DNA of 61,807 nucleotides, filler included, from Sphacelaria rigidula (lineage: Eukaryota), in NCBI GenBank assembly GCA_964200075.2. It is 11 parts of 11 records of this genome, joined end to end, with 100 filler letters (N's around TTAATTAATTAA, not from the genome) between each part and the next. Parts side by side here need not be neighbours in the genome. Positions count along the whole stretch, not along the records: positions 22,514 to 28,041 come from CAXNAA020026607.1; 10 more parts are not named here. One strand, 5' to 3'. The translations under genes were made by a program, and so were the position numbers. Positions within the stretch are counted from its first letter, which is position 1, and each line of letters opens with the position of its first letter. Below, in pieces: positions 3,747 to 56,180 of this stretch. Under the pieces are notes generated by a model that made no database searches, was not told the origin of the DNA, and saw only the letters and a list, made by a program, of their open reading frames with translations.

Positions 3747-4543
3747 TAGCACCACTCGGTGCCTTTCACGGTTTCTGGTTGCTAAATTAATGATTGGTTG
3801 ATCTTATTGCTGGGCGTAGCTCTGGATTTACCTCGCCATCTTCCTTTTTGCTGCGAGAGTCTTCGTACTGTTTTGAGTTTTGCAAACATCAGGCTTACGG
3901 ATGATTCCGTGTTGTTCGAATGTATAAGCGTAAATTACAGCCGTGCGTTGCCACTCGCTCAAGAAAAACACACACCAAACAAACCAGCGTGCATTACCGT
4001 GGTGGCTGGTTCCGATACCAATTATGACCACTAGGGTGACCCGTGAAGATCCCAATAAAATCGTGCGCGCATACTATACGTAAGTAACCACTGAGCTGAC
4101 AGTCAGCGCTCACTGTTAGCTCAGTGCTCATCTATACTCCTAACAATAGTATAATCCAGGGGGCCGCTAAGCCGTCAGGCTACTGGGCCGTGGATTTCGC
4201 CAAGGCTGAGTAGGCCGTGGATAATGTCGAATGCAGACTATTGTAGGGTTTCCGGACCACGCCGCGCTAGCGTGTTCATATACAAAAATGAACAGCCCGC
4301 ATCGCATCCAAGTTGCACCTCTGGAATTGCTTGCCGCTGCGCTGTCAGTGCTGCTCTAACCTTCCTTCCGGACTACTTGCAGTTTTTCCGCAGCTTCTAT
4401 TTCGTCGTATTCGAACATATAAATAATATCCTGTTGAGGCGCTGACTTGCTTGACAACGGTCAGTGCCAGCTGCAAATTAAACCACTCCGACTGGTGACG
4501 GACCTCTTGTTGCAGAATACACTGCAAGCAGCAACAGGGGCGA

Positions 4544-4644: not shown

Positions 4645-4955
4645 GTGGTTAATGAGCTGAAAAGAGCTACAGTAGTAGTTCAACGCCACAGACAGTAGTT
4701 AGAAGTAGACACCATGTGGTACCATCGTATACTACGCTGCGGCGAAACTGACTGCCCGCAGGCTGTTTTACTGACCGAAGGACGTGCGTCGTGTGCGGAT
4801 AAACTTCTGTACAGCATTGCGCCATCGGACGGCAAGACGAAAGGGTTGGCAACGCTGTAGGGCCATGTCTCATCGTGACCCGAAAAATCGGTTTCCAAAA
4901 CCAGTTTGATCTCTGATTGATAGTGGCGATACCACGACCCTCCGCCCCCCCCCCC

Positions 4956-5127
4956 AAGGAGGGGGATAAGATATTATGTGAAAGGTTTTTGTGTAATGTA
5001 TGGAAGAAGAAACGTGAGGAGCTACGGAAGAAAACGGAATAAGCGCCGGAATGTTGGAGGTGTCTCTATTAGGAGTAGGAACAGTGCTCGGTCTCGAAAG
5101 GGATGCGTGGTCAACGGTCAAACGACT
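4956..5127 (+). mobile_element. 5'-truncated LINE 3' fragment
   Basis: Aligns to about 27770-27911 of the LINE (AAGGTTTTTGTGTA...CTCGAAAGGGATGCGTGGTCAACGGTCAAACGACT). Starts directly after a C11 run. Confidence 0.8.
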
Positions 5128-5481
5128 ACTGTAGTATTCCACAACGACACTACAGTGTGAAGCTATACTAACAACACAAGAGGGGTCAGGCAGGCGGCGA
5201 AGACTACGACCAAAGAAAAAAGCACGTTGTTTGTGCCGATGTTATCTATGGTCGCATGGTCAGGACCAAAATGGAAAATGCGGCTAGACTGCGATGTATT
5301 ACTAGTGCATCTCAGTTCATCTCAGATGACCATTCTGATCAATCCCAGCTCTCAAAATGGTCACTCCGCTTCTCTCGGGCCTCGTTTGTGGCTTGGAATT
5401 TTCCGTGGGAAACTTCCAACACGCATGGTTGACTTCGTGAGCTTTTCAACTATAATGTGAGCCACACCCCACACTCCTGTC

Positions 5482-12960: not shown

Positions 12961-13411
12961 TACACCTGTACGCCTAGTTTCGACGGGCGGGACGGGACCG
13001 CCACTTCTTTGCCAGAAGAAACACGAGAACAGACGCTACGAGGGGTTGAGTGCTAATCAGTGGACGGGGCTCACACTTCGGTGGCCACAAAGTGCATGAT
13101 TTTTTTTCCATGAGCGACAACCTGGGTGTGAAAGAGTCGAGCAGAGGGGACGGTGCGGTGGGCAGGAATGGAGGTGTGGAGGGCGCGTGAAGAGAGGTGG
13201 TGGTTGTTCATCCGGCCGTTGATGTTCTTATCCGCTAAATCGATACTCATGCGTGTGTACAGTTTTGACGGCAAGTAAAGTAGTGTTTTGCTTGTAACTC
13301 TTCCCGGAATATAACCAACCGACTCCTAGTACCATCGGAAGCTAGAGCCTAAGGCGGGATCATACACATGAGTGGGAATGAAACGAGCAAACTTTTCCCG
13401 ATCAAAACATC

Positions 13412-13833
13412 CAAGGGAAGATCGGGTAGAGATACCCAATACCCGATACCCGGGTATTCAGGAAAGTCGTGCAGTTAGTACCCAAAGTTTTGGGTATAGT
13501 ATTGAGGTTCACTCAAATTACTCAATCTTTGGGAAGAGTATTGAGATTATATCAACTCTACTGTACCCCAACCTTGAGTAAAGTATTGAAGTCATACTCG
13601 GGTGATACTCGATACCCGGGTATTGCTGAGATTGCCCACCAATGCTTTGAGCAGGGTATTGAGATCATGCTCAATTCTATCCAAAATTCGGTAGAGTTTT
13701 GAAATCATATCCAATCCAAAAGTTGGAATAGAGTCTTGTTATCGTACCTAATGTATCCAAACCTTGGGTGGAGTAAGTACCCGGGTGTTATACCCGTGTA
13801 CTCAAAGTACATACCCTACCCGACCTGCCCTTG
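13412..13833. mobile_element. Family B hAT-like element in the intron upstream of a PPR exon
   Basis: TIRs CAAGGGAAGATCGGGTAG / CTACCCGACCTGCCCTTG. Flanks AAAACATC / AAATCAAC match at 6 of 8 positions (possible decayed 8-bp TSD). Internal subrepeats present. Confidence 0.75.
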
Positions 13834-17930: not shown

Positions 17931-18358
17931 GAAGTATTATTGTGTCCATTGTCCAGAGCGTGCTTTTTCTTTTTCATCTCACCATCATATTACCTTGTTG
18001 CATACGACCAGTTTCTTCCTTGTAATTTTACTTGCTGCGGTCTTGCCCAGTTGCTCCCATCCTTTTAAGTTTCGCTCCTGTCTGATCCCTGTCTATTTCG
18101 GTATGAGCTGCACGTGTGCTTTTCAACAGGTCGGGATATTTCGCTGCATGCTTGGTCATTTCCCTTAGCAACTCTCGCTGCTTTTACTTCATTCCTAGTT
18201 TATCCATTCTCCATCTAAACAGCTTCCTACCGCGCCTGTTATTAGTAAGTCTGGTATGTCGGCTGTCTGTCCATATTACATGGTCATCCACAGTTTCTAC
18301 TTGCGCTGCGCATACATGTACTTCCGATTCCTTCTTGCTTTAATATGCTAACACTATA

Positions 18359-18990
18359 CGAGCTAGGCCAGCCTAGAAGCGGATTCGTAGTTTGCAGGCC
18401 CAATATCACCTCAATTTTTAGGGTTGGCCCCTGAAAGTTGGCATGGACAATGAATGGGGCATAAACGAATAATGAAAAGCGAAACCCATTCTTTTTTTCC
18501 CTCATGATTTACCGGCATTTTACTGAGACCTGAAAAGCGATTATGGCCTCCAATTCATGGAAATTAATCATTGGGTCTGGCGTTCCGTCTTTAAAGTATG
18601 CCCTCTTCATTGTACATACCAAGTTTCAGGAGCCAAGCCTATAAATTGAGGTGAGAATGGGCGGTTAAGTAACCTGGTCTGTAGAAAACTGGAACAGTAT
18701 TTTGCAGGCCACTTACCGGCCCGCGTTTGGTGTTTGTGTATTGAAGTTTTGGTGTGAGACCTCGCTAGGGCTTCATGAACAAAAAAAAGTGGGCCCGTAT
18801 ATTTGTCCCAACTGGTTTTGGGCGTTTTAGAATAGAACGACCACTTTTTGACAGGAACGCCCGAACCTCTCCAGAAAAAAGAAAACTCGAAGGCTCATTT
18901 TTTTATTCGGCATGATACGACTGTGGTTTTCCATGCTAGGTTTCACGTCACAATTCTAAAAATGAGCTGAAGAACTAAAGATGAGGCTAT
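18359..18990 (-). mobile_element. Family A TIR element, inverted partial copy
   Basis: TA|CGAGCTAGGCCAGCCTAGAAGCGGATT... is the reverse complement of the family A right end. Internal similarity continues to about 18990. Confidence 0.75.
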
Positions 18991-22513: not shown

Positions 22514-23719
22514 CCCCCGATATATTAAATTCAAATGGAGGTTGCGGTCTCGCGGTGAGATACCCGTGAAGCTGTGCCGGTTTTCATTGATGGTTGGAAA
22601 TCTTGTCAGATGTTTTCCTGAAATTTCCGACGTTAGGTGCAAAAGGCGTCTCATGAAGGCAAGGGGTAGATATTGCGTGGCATAAACGTCATGGCCTACT
22701 GCACTCATAAAAAACACCTTACTAGCAACCGACCACATTACCTGCGAGAAGGAGCACCAAGCCTTAAGTAGACTCCTTGAGATCTTGAAGGATACAAGCT
22801 GGTGCAAAGTGTGGGAGAATCGTTAGCCAAGCTTTCGGTAGCGAAGGTTTACTGGGGAGCGTTATAATAATAGCGACCTATGGTGAACCGTAAACGGAGA
22901 GGGAAGACGTGATGATGTAGGGAATATCCCGATGTGAGTAAGGCCCTGTGTTATGCAAGCCGTTCTTGAGGCTTCCACAGTGAAAAATGATCTCCCTGGA
23001 AGAAAGTAACCTGTGCAGCAGCAGGGCAAGAAGATAGAAGATACGATCGTGGGATGCCTGGATAGTTTTGCCATGAAGATCGTCTGGCACAAACGTGGGG
23101 TACTTGTTTCCAGGGTGTTGAACTTGGCTTCAGGCTACGAGCCCATATTGGGGACATCATTTAGTGTCAGTGAGTCAGCAAAAGAAGTGCAAGGCACCAG
23201 ACAACATGTAATAGGATGGGGGTATCCGAGTACCTTGACTATATGCCACCGCGATGCTTGAAACGAAGAAGCTGGAGATTCTCTCGAAAGAGATCGAGAG
23301 AGAGACGGTAAGGAAGGGCGGATGGAGAAGTAAAGAATGGACGGGTAAATGACTAGAAGTGCTGGTATTCGGAGAGCGTAGCGTTATGACGAGAATAGAG
23401 TTGGACACTGTTTGACAATAGGAAAAGTAGGAAGGGAGGGAGAACACTTCCGAGTCACGCAAAAACAGAGCGCGAACAAGGAGTAGGGACGGATAGAGAC
23501 ACGTAAGTTGTCGGCATGGGTTGGAAGGGTGGGATGGAACGGAGGGAAGGAGAAGCAGGAACAAGTAAGTGCCCGGAAAGGACAGGGGAAGGGAAGGGGA
23601 CACAGCTACCCGAACCAAATAGTCGAAGACCAAACCAGAAACGGGAAGAAAAATCAAGCAAGGGAAAATAGAAGTAAAAGCGACGGAGAGCGAACAGTAG
23701 ATAAATGGAGAGCAGGTAA

Positions 23720-26700
23720 TGATTCGGAACGGTGGTTGAGAATAAGATCGTGAAACGTGTGTGGATTCGCCACAGATGAGCGCAAAGTTATAGAGATATC
23801 CAAGGGCAGGTCGAGTAGAGTATACTCAAAACTCAGTATTTTCGAAAAGTCATACTTTCAGTACTCATGTTTTGAGTATAGTATTTGAGGCCGTACTCAA
23901 TCTACCCAGCATTTGAGTATAGTATTCGAGGTCATACTCAATCTACCCCAAATTCGAGTAGAGTATTGAGATCATACCCAAGTGGTGCTCTATACTCAAG
24001 TATCACTGAAAGTGCGTACTCAATATTTAGAATAGTATCGGAGGTCCTACTCGATCTGCCCAACGTTCGAGTAGAGGAGTTGAGATCATATTCAATCTAT
24101 CCAAACTTTGAGCAGAGTACTAGGGTCATACCCAAGTGATGCTCTATACTCAAGTATTACGGAGAGTGCTTCCTCAGTATTTGAGTAGGGTATTGGCGCT
24201 CGTACTCAATCTACTCAAGATTGGGGGAAGTTATTTGAGGTCATACTCAATTTATCCAAAACTTGAGTAGAGTATTGAAGTCATACCCAAGTGATACTTT
24301 ATAGTCAACTACTACTGAGAGTGCTTACTCGATATTTGAATAGAGTATTGGAGGTCGTACTTGATCTACTCAGTTGTTGAGTAGAGTGTTTGAGGTCGTA
24401 CTCAATCTACCCAAACGTTTAGTCGAGTATTTGAGGCCGTACTTAACCTACTCAAGAATTATTTGGAGTAAATACTCGGGTATTATACTCGAGTACTTAG
24501 AAGTATGTACTCTACTCGATCTCTCCTTCGAGATATCCCAACAAGTAGACGCGACCTAGATATAGTAGGAATCCAAGAATCATCGGAGGGAGAGGGGACG
24601 GAAATACGATGCAAAGTTGAAGACTACGCATGGATAGGGAAACGGCGGAAGTGACAGAACCCCGAGAACGGGAAGAGACGGGAGTAGGATTCTTAGCCAA
24701 GGAATACCTGTGTGACATCATAAAAGTGATCAAAGACAAGAATTTCGACGAGAGCACGTGGAAAAGGGAACCAAGAGAGCGGGGAACGACTGACTCCTTC
24801 GGAAGGAATATCTTTGTCCTCCCCGTAATCGAAGAGTAGGTCAAACTATATACTGCGGAGGTTTGGAGAGATAGCAGCAGATGTACACAAGTATGAAATG
24901 CGAGGAGGAGTAATATAAGTGGGATATAATAATGCAAGGGTTGGAAGAGCAGGTGAGCCGGATGAAATCATTGATAATATTACGGGGAAGATAGGAAGAA
25001 CACCAATGAAGTGAAGATGCTCAAGTTCCTCGAGGATAACGAGATGAAGACGCTGAACGACAGACCACAAAAGCCAGAGGCGCAATGGACATGGACGAGG
25101 AAATGCAAAGACGAGAGGGAACGCCGCGTTCTTGACTACATAGTGGTAGAGCATGGGAATAGTAAAGAAATTGAAGTATATGCATGCGCGGACGACGTGG
25201 GAATCACAGATCATTGCCTAATATGCACAGGAAGCAAACAGAGGAGAGCTAAAAGAAATAGGTGGGGTAAGAAGTTGTACAAATGGAGAGGTAATGGACT
25301 AGAAATGAAGGAGAAACAACAGGAGTTCCTAGAAGAGATGGTCAAAAATGCAATGAAATTTTCTGAGTTGTTGCAGAGCGTAGGTACAGTTGATACCGAA
25401 ATGGAAATGGGAGCGGGCAGGAGCGGAAATTATAGAAGGATGGAAGCGGTCGGTCACAAACACATCGAGTGAAGTCACGAATTTAGAGAAGGAATCGATT
25501 GTACGCAACAGAGCAGTAATATCGTGGGGCGAGGAACTCCAAGAAGCTATAAGAGTAGGGAGAGAGGCCCACACAAGATACATATCGAATGAACTACGGT
25601 AGGATGGGAGGAGTATACTGAAGCTCGAAAGGAAGTAATGAAAATGGTACAGAAGAAAAAGAAAGGAATATCGGAAGATGTAGTGAATGAAACAATTGAA
25701 CATTCGATGACGAGATGAAAGAAATGTGGGTAGGGATAAAAAGGGATAATGGGAGACCAGGCGGGGAAGATAGACAAGGGGATAGCCACACGACGAGCAC
25801 AGAACAGTAAACTGGTTAGTTGTTCAAAGGGGAAGAGATGAGCGCTAGTAGAGCCCTACCGTGAACTACGAAACCCAAAAAACTAAAAGGAGGTTCGACA
25901 CGTAATTCGAAAAATAAATCAACACGTGGGCAGAGGCAAATGTATAGGCGTCAAAACGGGAGGATAATCTCTCAGGAGAATTGCAGAGATAGGTTACCAG
26001 AGATGAAGTAAAGAAATGTGTAGCTAAACTCAAGAACAGAAAGGCAGCAGGGGCAGAGAAATAGTGAAGGAATATCTCAAGTACGGAGGGAGGGAATTAT
26101 CACCATGGTGGGTATGTTGTACAACTGGATATGGGAAAACGAGTACACACCCTAGAGGTGGAGAGAAGGATAAGTAGTCAACCTCTTCAGGAGAGGAGAC
26201 AAGGCTGACCCAGGGAATCGTAGAGAGATACCGCTACTGAGCACCATAGGGGAAACATTCTGTAAGATTCTGAACAATAGAAAATGAACGATGCTAGAAA
26301 ATGTAGAAAAAAACAGCGAGGGGCATGCAGGTTTCAGACCAAAACGTAGTTGCGTAGACCAAGTGTACACACTAGGTGAGATTATTCAAGGTAGGGAGGA
26401 CGCCGGACTGACAAGGTACTATTTCTTTGTGGGCGTAAAAAAGGCCTATGAAACAGTATGGAGAAATGGGCTGTGGGAAGCGTTGTGTGAAACTAGGATC
26501 AGGCAAAATATGTGAAGAATGGTAAAGGAGATGACAGAATGAGCCAAAAGTGCTATGATGCTGGGCGGGAAAATATCAAAGCATTTCGAAATTTTACCAG
26601 GAGTTGCAAAAGGATGTACGTCATCACTCACTCTTTTCACGGTATTCATCAATGACTTGATAAGAGCAATAGAAGCAGCAAAGTAAGGAGTCAAGGTGGG

Positions 26701-27934
26701 TGAAAATATGGTATCAGAAATACCGCAATGGCTGCACAAGCAAATAGAGAAGGCGCTAGACTACACTGGGAAATGGAGAATGGCAGCGAACGGTAAAGAA
26801 TGCGCAGTAATTAAATGCAATGAAGAATATAAAATTTGGTAGAGCTCTAATGGAAGTAGGAAGAAGAGGAGCTGCCGATCGTAGACCAGTATACATACCT
26901 TGGCGTAGAGAACTCAAAATATTGTTTTGGGATGCACGCATACATGAAGTAATAGAAAATGGTAAGGCACAGATAGGAAGGATGGACGTGATCCTCGGAG
27001 ATTCGCACCTAGGTACTAGGATTAAGACATGTATCCTGATGAACGTGATTGTACCGAAGCTGGAATATGCAGGAGAGATAAGGGAGGGTAACGTGAAGTT
27101 GGTGGAGGGGTTGGAAACGGTACAGATGGCTGCAGCTGAGAGAATACTTGGTTGCTCGATAGCGACGAGTGATACAGTTTTGAGAGTAGAGTTGGGAATG
27201 CACTCACTTGAAACAAGCAGAGACATGAGAAGATTGAGATGGCGATATAGCGTAAAGCAGACGCGGATAAATAGATTGCCAGCTATAGTTGATGGGGCTG
27301 TTTGGAAGAACTGGAATAGGGTGGAATAGAGAAATCGTGAAAATATGGAAGGAGATGAGAGGAAACCAAGACGAGAGATGCTGTCGGTAGATAAATGTAC
27401 GGGGTACAAGACAAAACTAAGAGAAATGATGGAAAAAAGTAGATGAGGAAGAACACCTGGAGATATACAGAGGGTTGAGAGAGGGGATAGGGATGGAAAT
27501 ATATCTGCATGACCCGGTGAACGCGGCGAAAACCTTGAAACTGCGATTTCCGGTGGATGACCTGGACAGAACTGCCGCTGTGGCAAAGCAATAGAGAGCA
27601 GAAGTCGAATAGTGGCAGAATGTGAGCTATACAAGGAGGAACGGGACGTGCTATAGGGGGAAATGCGGGGCGTGAACAAAGGTGGCGTGTAGTCGTTCGA
27701 TGTACCAGAGAGTAGGAAGAAAACGATTGCTATGCCAGGAGATAGACGGTGGCCACAGATGGCGGAAGAGGGTGGGGTAAAATATGAAGAAGGTTTTTGT
27801 GTAGTGTATGCAAGAAACGTCATGAGCACCGGAATATTGAAGATGTCTATATTAGGTGTAGGAATTGGTGCTCCGTCTCGAAAGGGATGCGTGGGCAACG
27901 GTCAAACGACTGAGGCAAGCAACAAAAGAGTACG

Positions 27935-27970
<36 letters not shown>
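23720..27970 (+). mobile_element. Degenerate non-LTR retrotransposon (LINE): APE endonuclease, reverse transcriptase, C-terminal zinc-knuckle remnant, 3' UTR and C36 run
   Basis: APE motifs LRIRS*NVCG, DLDIVGIQES, VLDYIVV, TDHCLI. RT motifs KAAGA, VVNLFRRGDKADPGN, AGFRPKRSCVDQVY, VKKAYETVWRNGL, GVAKGCTSSLTLFTVFINDL. CRCGKAIESRSRIVAECELY near 27575. Many stops and frameshifts. A possible ORF1 remnant lies upstream (about 22860-23700). Clade not resolved. Confidence 0.92.
23801..24529. mobile_element. Family B hAT-like element inserted in the LINE APE domain, perfect 8-bp TSD
   Basis: GAGATATC (23793-23800) | CAAGGGCAGGTCGAGTAGAGTA ... TACTCTACTCGATCTCTCCTTC | GAGATATC (24530-24537). Excision restores ...KVIEISQQVD... 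Confidence 0.88.
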
Positions 27971-28141: not shown

Positions 28142-28807
28142 TCCATCTAGGACCTCAACATTTCGCTGATCGACATCCAATTTTCTATGGCGTGTAGCAG
28201 TTGTCAATAGCTATCAGTAGGTGACGAAATGGAACCATATTTCGAAGATTTGGTGCGGATACGAAGATATCAATTCTCCGCGTTTCTTATCCCCAATAAA
28301 AGATCCATCCCCAATATGTAAGATTCCATGTTGGAGGCAAAATCTTCGCGTAAACTGAAATGGAAATGGCCGAGCACAACAAGCAGCTGGGAATTCGCAC
28401 GTTTGTGTTCGTTTTCGCCAATATCGCCCTCATACGGCGCTTCATGCAGCCTGAACCCAAACATCAGGCGCTGTATGGCCATTTTTTCGTAACACTTTTG
28501 GCTGGTTTGGGGGGCGGGCTGTCGTAGAAAGTGCCCCTGCCAGATTGGTCCAGCTTGGCGTTTTGGTCAGAACAATCTATTATTCACGTCGTTGACAACG
28601 CGAGGACAACAGTATCATATATATGAAAATGTTCGGCTGATCTTGTTACAAGTCAATCGACGTGGTGCGGGGGGAATGCTGATCCAGTCCGCCATACCAA
28701 ACTATGGCGACGAGTGTACCGGGAGAGAGATGGGTCGATCCCGTGAGGCCTCGGACCCATCCCGAGCAGGGGGGGGTGTAATCATGATTATCGATACCAA
28801 AGACTGC

Positions 28808-29045
28808 TGCCGAGATAGCCCCCCCCCCGAACCAACGAAAAAAGTGCACGGAGGCGATGGTCATAAATGCCGTTATAGCTGGTTTCGTGCTGCACGACGC
28901 AACTGATTTGGGTGTTATAGCTCATTTCGGACTGCTACACGCCTTTCATGTGAGCGAAATCGCTGTAAACGAGCCCAACCGTGGGATCGCAGCCGGTTCG
29001 TCGAATGGTCTCCGGTGCACTTTTTGTGGGGAGGCTATCTCGGCA
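28808..29045. mobile_element. MITE-like element with about 40-bp imperfect TIRs
   Basis: TGCCGAGATAGCCCCCC...AAAAAGTGCAC versus GTGCACTTTTT...GGGGAGGCTATCTCGGCA. Confidence 0.55.
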
Positions 29046-30211
29046 TTAGTCCAAAGTCATAAAGCCATTGACCTGACATCCCCACAAAGCCGGGACGGAA
29101 GACGCCGGGGGGTTTTGCCGGACCAGGCCCGAGGAAGGGGGGAGGGGTAGAGAATGATGATAATTCCTTCAAAGAACATCCAATCTCGGTGGAACACGAT
29201 CAGGCGGCTACATCGATCGTGCTTAGTCACCCTCAAGTTGCTTGCGGACACCGTGCGTTGGCGATGCCTATATATTGTTGCCCCAAGTTTTGTTCCCATG
29301 TGTTCCTGCCGTATTCCCCCGGGCATATGTACCCGCGGCTGCCGTATGCCTCACGTGGTGTTGACCCATGATATACAACCCGTCACCACGACCCTCCACA
29401 GAACCAAGCCTGAGCCGGCCTATTTCTTCGGGCGACTCGTCCACCCTGTCGCGCCCCGTCTTGAACCCGCAGAAAATCCGCCACGTTATGAAGAAGCGTG
29501 TCGAAAAGGCGGCCAGCATGAACTGCGACGCCATCCTCCCCAACGCGATGATGGTGAGAAGCCGACTGATTGCTACAGAACGTAAAGCAGAAAATGCGCC
29601 GCCGTCTGTCCGTAGTCGAGGGTGCGTGTGCGTGCTGCGGTTGGTCGTTTGTCTTCAGTTTGGCTAGGAGGTGTGTGAAGAAGGTACTACTGTACACAGT
29701 CGCTCGAATGAGTCCTCACTTCACCGTTCAGCACGCTGCGTGCTACTAACAGAGTGGTAGCCGAGAGAAGGATGACCGAAGAAACCAACCAGGTGTTTCG
29801 GGAATGCTCAGGCCACACACAAGCGAAGGCATCAGGCACCCGAAGTTAGAGCACGGTCGTTTTCTGGCACCACTAGGCCCGATACACGCTCTGGCAGAAC
29901 AAAAACACAACACACGCGCGCCAGCGCAACGGGGCTATATTGTGTGTAAAGACAAGGTTGAGATTTCGCGTCCGAAGGTGGCGTGGTTTTGATTCCGACG
30001 ACTGTAGCGAATTGTGTGATTATCAGTATAACTAGTTTTCGCCCAGACTGCGCATGAAATCTCCCAGGAGCAGTGAAAGGGCCACGTTTCATGTAACAAT
30101 ACTGAGATAAGGAAGTGTGAAGATAGGCGCACACGGATAGGGCAATTCAAACCATGATTTGTCGATATTCATGTTTTGTACGTGTCCTTGAAGTGGTTCG
30201 TGCAATAGCAA

Positions 30212-30590: not shown

Positions 30591-30874
30591 CCAAACCTGA
30601 CGCCGTTGTCGTCGTGATAAGGTGGCCAGCCACCGCAGCCATTCAGATGGCGGGGTACTAGGAACGCGCCGAGTCGAGTCAGTACCAGACCTGGCCCTGT
30701 ATGTGGCCTAATACAATATGTCCATCTGACCGTGTCGCAAATATTCGTCGTGCAGTCAATGTATAAGAGAAAACGTTTGAAACGATCGTTGGACCAACCT
30801 CCGCACCCCGTTCCTTCGTTTCCTCTCTTCTACATTTTCCTTCTACGTGCCTATCTCCACGCGTGAAACAAAAG

Positions 30875-31183
30875 ACCTACGCCGAGGAGGACACAGGAGT
30901 GTCCATTTCCAAAGCAGAGCAAATCATGTACAACATCTGGTTTGCGAAGCTGGTGCATGACCACGGCATGTTGGTGGGATTCAAGGACGCGCGGGAGCTT
31001 GTGCCACTCTGCTACGGAGACTTCGATTTTGCCATTAACTTCTCGTGCTTTGAGTTCGAAGAGTGCAATGTGTACAAAAACACGTTCATCAAGAACGGCA
31101 AGCCCGTGTTCAACGCAGAATTCGAAGCGGAGTTGGACCACTGCGACGATGCGAACAAGCTGAATATCGACTCTATTATCAAG
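30875..31183 (+). CDS. Glycoside hydrolase family 114-like (endo-alpha-1,4-polygalactosaminidase fold), C-terminal half, internal exon
   Basis: AAG acceptor after a pyrimidine tract; AAG|GTAGGA donor. DTGVSISKAEQIMYNIWFAKLVHDHGMLVGFKD...DFDFAINFSCFEFEEC...FIKNGKPVFNAEF matches the GH114 pattern TG..l...dQ..Yn..lA..aH..Gl.vGlKN...fDfavNEqC..y.EC...Fi..gKPVf..EY. Confidence 0.85.
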
Positions 31184-31486
31184 GTAGGAAAGGGCTGTGA
31201 GACACCGTTTGAAACAGGAAATTATGAGACCATGCTTTGGCGACGTGTGTGCGTAGCAGTTCTCGGGCGTCGCGGCTGTCTATCTGATCAGGCTTGTCTT
31301 CGCATGCTTGCAGATGCCAGATCGTAAGCGTGCGTAATGTGGGTCTGAACGTCATCCAGCTGCAGCACATCGCTGTTTTGTATGTCTCCTGACTGGCACC
31401 CTCCCCGCCCCCTCCCGTTGCCGATTCGTGCCGTCTCCGTCTTTCCCTCTTACTCGTTTGCTTGCGGTCCATATACCCTGCCAAAG

Positions 31487-39397: not shown

Positions 39398-40134
39398 CTA
39401 TTCTCCTTTTAATTTTAATTTTTTTTTTCCATTTTTTCCCCCCTTTTCCCCCCCCCCCCCCTTTTTTTTTGTTATCATTATTCTCGCCGTCGAGTTGGCA
39501 CATGGCGTCTTCATGTTGACGCCTCGACGGTCACCATCATTGAAACAAGGTTGATATTCCATCAAGCGTTTTGGTATTGGCAATGGAAAAAAATTGTGTG
39601 GATTTTGGGGTGCTGTTTTTTGAAGGACATGTGGTCAAGTATCTACCATTATCACGCCAAACGATCTTTCCGACCCATGTTTTTCAGACCCGTATAGAGA
39701 TGTGTCCCCAGTGCTGCACGGGACTTCGTACATGAAAAATAGACAGGTGATGCCGATCGTTGTTTGTGTAGACTTGGCAGGCACGCGAGTGCCAGTCTTG
39801 GCTGTGTGCACAAACTTGAACAAACTTGACCCGTTGCGTCCCTTACCGGACAAGAAGAATCTTACTGCACCAGGGTGACAATTTTGGTCCGCGAATGGTG
39901 TATACTGTTGGATTCTTACCTGTGGCCTTCCGCCGTGAAAATGGTTGCCGTCGATCTTTTCTGTCCTCCCTTCTTTTCTTCCTTGTCAGGGCTTGAAATA
40001 ATGAGGTGTCCGGCCTGGGGACGGAAGGGAAGGGTCCCCATAGTCTTGAAGGGTGTGTGCATATTGTAGGACATGTACTCGTACAGCATGCGCACCCAGA
40101 TGCACGACCATCCTTCCAGCGTAGAGGAATGGGG

Positions 40135-40200
40135 GCGTACTCATTTGTTGCTTGCCTTGGTCGTTTGACCATTGACCACGCATCCCTTTCGGGACGGAGC
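40135..40200 (-). mobile_element. 66-bp 5'-truncated LINE 3' end with 14-bp TSD
   Basis: Minus strand: GCTCCGTCCCGAAAGGGATGCGTGGTCAATGGTCAAACGACCAAGGCAAGCAACAAATGAGTACGC. Flanks GTAGAGGAATGGGG (40121-40134) and GTAGAGGGATGGGG (40201-40214). Confidence 0.88.
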
Positions 40201-40782
40201 GTAGAGGGATGGGGCAGATACAAGATCAATGGCGGGTATAACGCCCCATATCTCCGTATTGTGCAGGAGGAGCTTGATGAAGTTACAGTGGCGACCGCTG
40301 GGATCACTCCTCCCCCCGTCCCCTCTCCCAACTCCGTGGAACATAACCCTAATGTAACACGGGCGCAGACTGGTACCTACCGCAATATGTGCATGAGGGT
40401 GTGTGTGTATTTTTTTTCTTGGCTTTCTCGCATTCAACGACTCGCCTCTTGTGGGTGAGTATTCATGTTTCCAACGAAAGCAAAAAAAGTCACCGAAGAT
40501 CGTATGTACTGCATAGTCTGAAGATGGTTTTCACACCCCCAGAGAAGAGATGACAATGTCAAGAAAAGTTGTACTGCGTACAGTATGGAATATGTTGCCT
40601 ATTAGCAATAGACGCGGCAGTTGATACTGTGCGCAGTACACTTTTTGACAGCGTAATATATCGTCATTATCCAGGGTGTGATGGTTTTGCAAACGCGCGC
40701 GCACGTGTTTTCAATCATTCCGTTTCGTTGGTGTTGTCGGTGGTGGTGGTGTGTGTGTGTGTGTGTTTGTTGGGACATGCAG

Positions 40783-42214: not shown

Positions 42215-42671
42215 GTGAGTCATGCAGCAGAAAATAACTAGGAAAACTTTTACGTAGCGCCCCCTCTCCCCTTCCAAGGTTTGGCGTCGGTTGGCAACGG
42301 CGCTGTAAAACACGCCACTCATTACTTCAGCCAGACAATTAGGTCACCGTTTTTTTCTACTTGCGGGAACCGAGATGGTGGTGAAGTTGGGTCATATTGT
42401 GCGAAGGGGATGATGGTACTACGCAGTGGAACCATGGCGGGTGAATGGTGAGACATTCATGCACCAGAGTGGAACCCGTGGTTGTCTCTGCAAGTGGCGG
42501 TACCAGAAAATTAAGGAACTCAGTGTAGGATGTCATCCGCATGCGAGATAACTAGTTGACTTCGGACTGAACAATCTTAGCAGGATGCAGCTCACCCTTC
42601 ATTCGACTCGCCGCACACATCACGGCGCTTCGCGCTTGGTGATCGAGTGCGAGCCTGGTCCGGCGAAAACC

Positions 42672-42722
42672 CGGCGTGCTCCGTCCCGGCTTTGCAGGGA
42701 TACGAGGTCAATGGTCTGATGA
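42672..42722 (+). mobile_element. LINE 3' fragment, variant subfamily
   Basis: GGCGTGCTCCGTCCCGGCTTTGCAGGGATACGAGGTCAATGGTCTGATGA matches 56130-56180(-). Confidence 0.65.
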
Positions 42723-43154: not shown

Positions 43155-43273
43155 CGCCGAAATGTTGAAGATGTCTGCACCAGGAATAGAAACGGTGCTT
43201 CGTCTCGAAAGGGATGCGTGTTCAATGGTCAAAGGACTAAGGCAAGCAAAAAATGAGTACATCTTCCCCCCCC
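43155..43273 (+). mobile_element. 5'-truncated LINE 3' end in a cysQ intron, flanked by C-rich near-duplicates
   Basis: AATGTTGAAGATGTC...CGTCTCGAAAGGGATGCGTGTTCAATGGTCAAAGGACTAAGGCAAGCAAAAAATGAGTAC. Flanks CTTCCCCCCCGTGCCCCACC / CTTCCCCCCCCTCCCCTCC. Confidence 0.85.
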
Positions 43274-56095: not shown

Positions 56096-56180
56096 GGGGG
56101 GGGGTGTACTCATGATCATGCATGCCATATTCATCAGACCATTGACCTCGCATCCCTACAAAGGCGGGATGGAGCACGCC
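56096..56180 (-). mobile_element. LINE 3' end, variant subfamily, with C9 run
   Basis: Minus strand: GTGCTCCATCCCGCCTTTGTAGGGATGCGAGGTCAATGGTCTGATG...CATGAGTACA-CCCCCCCCC. Confidence 0.75.

Follow-up and report, generated by a model that had tools for sequence, protein, structure and literature searches.

Why does a brown-algal LINE end in a run of C rather than of A, and what does that run say about where the element inserts? The question arises at 27935–27970 (+) of the window, a 61,807-nt stretch of Sphacelaria rigidula DNA that consists of a row of 5.5-kb pieces with N or linker spacers between them (assembly of 244 Mb in 27,214 contigs). Here GAGTACG, the end of a long LINE, is followed directly by 36 Cs, as the original prediction had it and as reading the window sequence confirms. 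The tract comprises tail and target together, and its target site duplication (TSD) is not recoverable; with a contig end some 70 nt away, its length and the bases beyond it are unreliable, and the C tracts of typical copies are much shorter. The prediction went on to propose that the family is the G/C mirror image of L1, that a C-tailed LINE may not have been described before, and that it could seed or extend the long C/G runs of this genome.

The element and its C-terminated ends

Aligned to L215, an intact copy in a public metagenome record, the window LINE (22527–27934, +) is a near full-length, decayed copy with a 5′ UTR and one APE-RT ORF; identity is 75–85% over 22527–23798, 24543–27566 and 27566–27944. 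Its length is 5.4 kb, of which 0.74 kb is an insertion, and at least 95 nt are missing at the 5′ end. The remnant of the single ORF (23308–27926, +) was recovered by tblastn with residues 1–1360 of the relative P0005, in several frames, and is broken by stops and frameshifts; its end reads ...ASNKRVR, the ORF's own stop codon being mutated. To judge from its sequence, with many stops and frameshifts, the 0.74-kb insertion and the mutated stop codon, this copy is dead. The later insertion (23800–24542) shows as a gap against L215 and contains a tandem array of 155-bp period (23871–24436, TRF). It is kin to 174–1059 and 13409–13832, a dispersed repeat with a 155-bp-period array and a 41-bp sub-repeat.

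The ORF remnant aligns along both P0005 and P0009, full-length relatives that have Pfam Exo_endo_phos (APE) and RVT_1 (RT) domains and the C-terminus ...MTKASNK. Named homologues of the element protein come from Ectocarpus, and two named Ectocarpus proteins fall into one 90% cluster with P0009. L215 has an intact ORF of 1,412 aa, its one long sense ORF, and measures 4,972 nt up to the element end on a 5.1-kb contig, its 5′ end probably cut off. At 150 scored places, no open frame exceeded 574 aa. The union of APE and RT in one ORF, seen in the Pfam domains, the alignment, the L215 ORF and the modelled fold, places the element among APE-type non-LTR retrotransposons, as do its 5′-truncated copies, variable-length TSDs and simple 3′ tail. 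L213 and L215 are relatives, intact or young, in other public records. In both, only GTACG separates the stop codon from a run of C7 or C9, so that the 3′ UTR amounts to five bases, and the C-run end is the same as in the genome copies.

Further copies aligned within the window behave alike. The minus-strand copy at 40137–40200 terminates in GAGTACG-C5, and a 5′-truncated LINE end of 106 nt (43155–43260) terminates in GAGTACATCTT-C8, its C tract reaching 43273 (43155–43273, +) and a C7 lying upstream. A fragment that starts at 4957 comes directly after C11 (4945–4955; together 4945–5128, +) and is without its 3′ end, as is a fragment at a contig start (5630–5707, +); an internal fragment lies at 17963–18366 (−). 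The C-flanked copies at 40137–40200, 43155–43260 and 4957 are those that the prediction had cited. The copy cited at 56096 does end in C9, as stated, but belongs to a separate non-autonomous partner rather than to the LINE. Elsewhere in the window, 30767–31327 (+) holds one exon of a gene for a family-114 glycoside hydrolase (Pfam PF03537, E 3e-21).

Are such ends a property of the family at large? The last 20 nt of the element have 4,150 exact copies genome-wide (reversed-pattern control, 0), which are a subset only, as exact matching omits diverged copies. One base of any kind and then CCC follow 3,334 of these ends (80%), when about 1% is expected by chance; one base and then three non-C bases follow 30, when about 45% is expected (both chance figures assume the window's C content of about 23%). 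The remaining 786 are followed by one or two Cs or by a contig edge. Among the best matches at 30 loci, 29 have a C-rich 3′ flank, the window copy included, and the thirtieth runs into a contig end. Contigs from four other runs, coded as four organisms, have C-rich loose ends at both sides of the element; viral contigs held no exact match to the end motif.

Poly(A), which the prediction had stated to be missing, is indeed practically missing: AAA follows the variable base at 1 of the 4,150 exact ends, A10 occurs within 60 nt of 2 of 126 ends, and the last 300 nt of the majority LINE end, L213 and L215 contain no AATAAA. The sequence past the C tract is heterogeneous among ends, so the run is terminal rather than internal. 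An internal C run preceding further element sequence is rejected, the commonest 14-mers past the tract being found at no more than 6 of 126 ends and being themselves further element ends. The C-terminated ends are real and genome-wide. CCA-like addition is unsupported: of the bases that interrupt LINE 3′ tracts 30 of 101 are A, against 22 of 81 in background runs.

Target sites and long C runs

We gathered 168 LINE and 93 partner ends from 212 loci and dropped 30 loci that had been picked for lacking Cs, together with ends that had short or N-containing flanks or more than 1,450 nt of element, leaving 97 LINE and 79 partner ends. TSDs were called at a score of at least 10 with at least three non-C bases, and 3,000 mismatched flank pairs that kept the C richness served as control. 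The threshold was reached by 25 of the 97 LINE ends (control 50/3,000, 1.7%) and by 20 of the 79 partner ends (control 27/3,000); about three quarters of the ends thus lack a TSD at this threshold, which would pass over duplications made up wholly of C as well as those of old copies and nested insertions. Median TSD length is 14 bp for the LINE and 13 bp for the partner, overlap left out, with a range of 8–19 bp and one of 31. Nearly all begin with C (43/45, LINE and partner together). In the window, the 64-nt LINE end at 40137–40200 sits in a 17-bp TSD with one mismatch (40118–40214, −; repeats 40198–40214 and 40118–40134, starting CCCC), and the last 3 nt of the upstream repeat overlap the element. 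Microhomology at the 5′ truncation was found in 18 of 25 copies.

The 5′ side tells the same story. In the 30 nt that precede the 5′ junction, 61 of 97 LINE and 53 of 79 partner ends have C5 or longer; in the next bin outward 6 and 4 do, and the background is 4%. G5 occurs in those 30 nt at one LINE end and at no partner end. Tails of older copies supply 10 of the LINE and 13 of the partner 5′ flanks that bear C5. The tabulation that the prediction had advised shows C runs both at 3′ junctions and at TSD starts.

Did these C runs exist before the element arrived? A MITE-like element of about 270 bp (L244:1500–1770; L216–L245) has 16-bp terminal inverted repeats with G/C runs of about 9 on their inner side, and its arm has 1,569 exact matches genome-wide. 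In 6 of 36 sampled arms, whose C tracts are about 9 long, a LINE or partner end lies inside the tract, with one more degraded end, and the duplication is visible in two of the six; empty and filled sites thus occur in one genome. Together with the TSDs, these empty and filled arms indicate that the C run precedes the insertion. The MITE is a recurrent landing site of LINE and partner, and the sequence past the L215 C tract resembles the same arm. At 28800–29050 of the window, two inverted copies of a motif are followed by a C run and AAAAAAGTGCAC, which is probably one more small element with inverted repeats and C-bearing arms; it adjoins a partner fragment without its 3′ end (29051–29131, −).

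Some Cs nevertheless appear to come with the element. In 7 of 25 LINE copies the TSD contains the whole target run, and 3–11 further Cs follow the element; in L134, L148 and L150 the target is CCC, the shortest run that suffices, and 4, 10 and 11 more Cs stand on the 3′ side only. Compared with the 5′ side, the LINE 3′ side has more Cs in 14 copies, fewer in 7 and as many in 4 (n = 25), an excess that is weak overall, the more so as C runs also change length after insertion. We take these copies to suggest that the LINE can, in some cases, add Cs beyond its target. For the partner the 3′ side has more in 6, fewer in 12 and as many in 2 (n = 20); since the count is mostly not higher, most Cs after partner copies would derive from the target. 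At L224 (G000:C35, ~4150–4230), a short run of TTAGGG-like repeats separates a 61-nt LINE end from the upstream TSD copy and may consist of telomeric bases that were added at the 5′ junction.

Is the LINE then the source of the long C runs? With 29,113 runs of at least 12 Cs in the genome and 8,767 of at least 12 As, long C/G runs outnumber long A/T runs by a factor of 3.3, and most of the C/G runs stand beside no recognisable LINE. By a strict count, 1,158 of the 29,113 (4%) stand directly after GAGTAY plus one base, and an element piece adjoins 4 of 30 C12+ runs sampled from the largest contigs. In the window, 4 of 25 runs of C8 or more adjoin an element piece, compared with 24 of 600 random positions. 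The proposed seeding or extension of C/G runs holds in so far as some runs have been duplicated or lengthened; as their main source the LINE is not supported by the strict count and the sampled runs. On these counts, it is enriched at long C runs and accounts for only a small part of them, and the mechanism proposed below leaves the 3.3-fold excess of long C over long A runs without explanation.

A shared 3′ end and its predicted fold

The non-autonomous partner is non-coding and about 566–570 bp long, is flanked by Cs and occurs in tandem or nested clusters, with 1,806 exact ends genome-wide. In the window it is represented by a 3′ end with C9 that is cut by a contig end (56096–56180, −, with the element itself at 56106–56180; 94.7% to the partner majority sequence), by a copy without its last ~25 nt (42278–42722, +) and by the fragment at 29051–29131. 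It shares with the LINE only its last ~52 nt, which are 82.7% identical. Its majority sequence contains a 48-bp direct repeat (4–51 and 471–518), and a short form of about 96 nt starts at the second repeat (for example L119, L094 and L126), an arrangement that suggests that the long form was built from a monomer. An Rfam scan of three loci with long partner copies matched no tRNA, 5S or 7SL head at E up to 1, a search that can miss diverged heads.

What do the two elements have in common at their 3′ ends? The last part of the LINE (27868–27933, +), which overlaps the last ORF codons, is predicted to form a three-way RNA junction of 66 nt, in which GUGCUC/GAGUAC is the closing stem and the arms are a GAAA-capped hairpin and a longer one; MFE and centroid structures agree. 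Folding energy is not unusual against shuffles in two of the three window copies (z-score of the window junction, −0.52). The majority ends of LINE and partner have the same predicted fold, and when they are compared segment by segment, their loops being unequal, they differ at 1 of 42 paired positions, with the pair kept, and at 13 of 26 unpaired positions, including both hairpin loops (Fisher p 4e-6, an optimistic value because these same majority sequences, which show no two-sided compensatory change, also supplied the folds from which the helices were taken). Since the partner is free of coding constraint, the conservation of the stems points to selection on RNA shape. In this model the LINE, unlike L1, appears to need a structured 3′ end.

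The same structure coincides with a striking distribution of 5′ truncations. Among 117 LINE ends with a visible 5′ flank (loci L043 onward), 65 start 59–71 nt from the end, with a peak at 64–66, whereas the 13-nt bins on either side contain 5 and 2; the peak falls at the 5′ edge of the closing stem. Its share is inflated because short-read assembly favours short copies, a bias that would not create a peak over a shorter bin. On contigs from the four other runs, the best-supported 5′ loose ends lie at the same place (L213 3711, 3713), with C runs before them. Of the 80 partner ends, only one starts at the position that matches the LINE peak; the partner has its own cluster at 90–99 nt (11/80), at the start of its internal 48-bp repeat.

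Two candidate explanations for the LINE peak are release of the reverse transcriptase after it has copied the structure and processing of the RNA. That the 65-nt copies form a separate subfamily was rejected, as no fixed diagnostic change was found between 53 short and 41 long copies, a comparison confounded by the long ones having mostly been found with the old window copy and the short ones with the exact pattern. A bolder version of the processing idea, which we consider distinctly improbable, is that the last ~66 nt are a self-contained RNA module of tRNA-like kind, cut from the transcript at the 5′ edge of the closing stem in an RNase P-like manner and retrotransposed by itself into G/C runs by a G-run-specific APE. 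Such a module would account for the starts at 59–71 nt and, if real, would represent a minimal signal of about 70 nt for poly(A)-independent insertion into C runs.

A model of insertion and its relatives

How might such an element insert? Target-primed reverse transcription (TPRT) runs from a bottom-strand nick through priming to the cut of the second strand. We think it likely that the element is a brown-algal APE-RT LINE that inserts by TPRT into existing C runs, with a nick in the G run priming on a short C tract. The ORF protein would bind the ~66-nt three-way junction at the RNA 3′ end. The endonuclease, to go by the TSDs, would nick the G-rich strand inside, or at the border of, a run of at least three Gs, and the freed ...GGG-3′OH would pair with the short C tract after the structure and prime the cDNA, with extra Cs sometimes arising through a longer RNA tract or slippage. 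The second strand would be cut about 14 bp along, so that the C run and the adjacent unique bases become duplicated; the duplication itself is visible in genomic copies. Given the shared end, the same protein may mobilise the 570-bp partner in trans, and poly(A) would have no visible role. Because each new copy leaves C runs as later targets, nested clusters would follow. Of the proposed G/C mirror image of L1, the geometry stands (TSDs that start in the C run, C runs on the 5′ side and next to no poly(A)), whereas a simple mirror that recognises its tail does not, the structured 3′ end being apparently needed.

Does the endonuclease itself choose the C run? Across 35 aligned relatives, three APE catalytic-motif positions (D153, N155, H248) never vary and four others (N7, Y116, D222, D247) are almost invariant. 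A model of the L215 APE domain (pLDDT 92.5) has the APE fold and matches the TRAS1 endonuclease (Z 22.3, rmsd 2.5, 205 aligned), with cellular APEs tying. The specificity hairpin has 9 residues between its anchors and differs among three aligned brown-algal proteins; the L1 hairpin likewise has 9, T192 to S202, according to PMC1950540. The loop, whose inspection the prediction had recommended, gave no diagnostic signal, and equal length says nothing on the target. The hairpin is compatible with a reading in which nicking is loose, or breaks already exist, and only ends in GGG pair with the C tract of the RNA and are extended. The genomic outcome would be the same, CCC would suffice as a target, and L1 nicking in vitro is described as less defined than the insertion consensus in vivo (PMC1950540). 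The conserved catalytic residues and the uniform TSD lengths nevertheless fit staggered cuts by the element's own enzyme, and we regard selection at the primer as a possible, if doubtful, explanation.

The C tract could also be no tail at all, the element ending at GAGTAC-R and all later Cs being duplicated target or the product of later slippage. This would suit the 13 of 20 partner and 7 of 25 LINE copies with zero bases between end and TSD, as well as the partner's longer C run being more often 5′. The three copies with a CCC target and 4, 10 and 11 Cs on the 3′ side only would then require one-sided slippage from three Cs to as many as 13–14, which seems to us implausible, and we hold this reading to be improbable. 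We give practically no credence to an artefact in which abundant C runs, or assembly errors at contig ends, mimic C ends. C12+ runs are indeed numerous and the cited C36 does lie at a contig end, but the excess of C flanks over expectation is large and strand-specific (C, not G), TSDs are present, and the same ends recur in independently assembled records and runs. If insertion by G-run priming holds, the element is a natural G/C counterpart of L1 T/A priming and would allow the contributions of the endonuclease and of primer-tail pairing to target choice to be tested. The question is tractable, with intact natural ORFs at hand (L215, P0005, P0009) and a likely cis signal of about 70 nt. C-run targeting would explain the pile-up of LINEs in C runs and the breaks in short-read brown-algal assemblies.

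Is the family new? In the tables of PMC12477816, RTEX-1_Ec32 of Ectocarpus sp. 7 is entered as 'single EN-RT ORF; (C)n 3′' and RTEX-2_Ec32 as '(C)n termini/TSD', with C-rich TSDs for all and lengths of 5.5–5.9 kb for RTEX-1/2. The C tail and C-rich target are therefore not new; in the one paper found both are on record only as table notes. By table description the LINE shares the single EN-RT ORF, the (C)n 3′ end and the C-rich TSD, and its size is apparently near (L215, 4,972 nt to the end; window copy, 5.4 kb with its insertion); the Sphacelaria copies are older, with about 85% identity to the window copy. Matched in this way, and with indirect support from the Ectocarpus proteins, the LINE is probably a further member of an annotated brown-algal group of the RTEX-1/2_Ec32 kind. 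The RTEX label itself was based on the best blastp matches, RTEX-4_NV and RTEX-1_BF (PMC12477816), and RTEX-1 is also named in Saccharina (PMC4421812). The partner resembles by description the non-autonomous RTEX-N1_Ec32 (604–607 bp), whose '60 bp 3′ end 83%' like the LINE in the table compares with 52 nt at 82.7% in our ~566-bp element; its table rows make no mention of the 48-bp direct repeat or of the ~96-nt short form. The terms 'C-rich', 'stem-loop' and 'secondary structure' are absent from the main text of that paper (PMC12477816). In a search that lay outside Repbase and most subscription journals, we found nothing published on TSD geometry, on the junction or on the truncation peak. 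What is added here is (i) the ~14-bp TSD geometry, (ii) the empty and filled MITE sites, (iii) the extra 3′ Cs, (iv) the shared-stem junction and (v) the truncation peak.

Likenesses to better-known LINEs are partial. As in mammalian L1, there are APE and RT domains, 8–19-bp TSDs that start in a homopolymer, microhomology at the 5′ truncation and new copies in the tails of older ones; the differences are C/G in place of A/T, one ORF and a stop codon 5 nt before the tail. The poly(A) tail of the L1 clade (relaxed type) is missing here at all but a few ends, and recognition of poly(A) alone, as described for L1, contrasts with a shared structured 3′ end (PMC3747384). In the LINE/SINE pairs of the stringent type (UnaL2, SART1), a 3′ stem-loop is common to LINE and SINE, which compares with the predicted fold shared here by LINE and partner, and green-algal RTEX elements have non-A tails such as (CA)n, (CAA)n and (CCAT)n (PMC3747384, Table 3); compared with all of these, the present element has a mononucleotide C tail that matches its C-run target, and its predicted three-way junction lies inside coding sequence. 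A further Ectocarpus repeat, unknown7-N1_Ec32, is tabulated with C-rich termini or insertion sites and 7–10-bp TSDs (PMC12477816), and may be another passenger of C-run LINEs.
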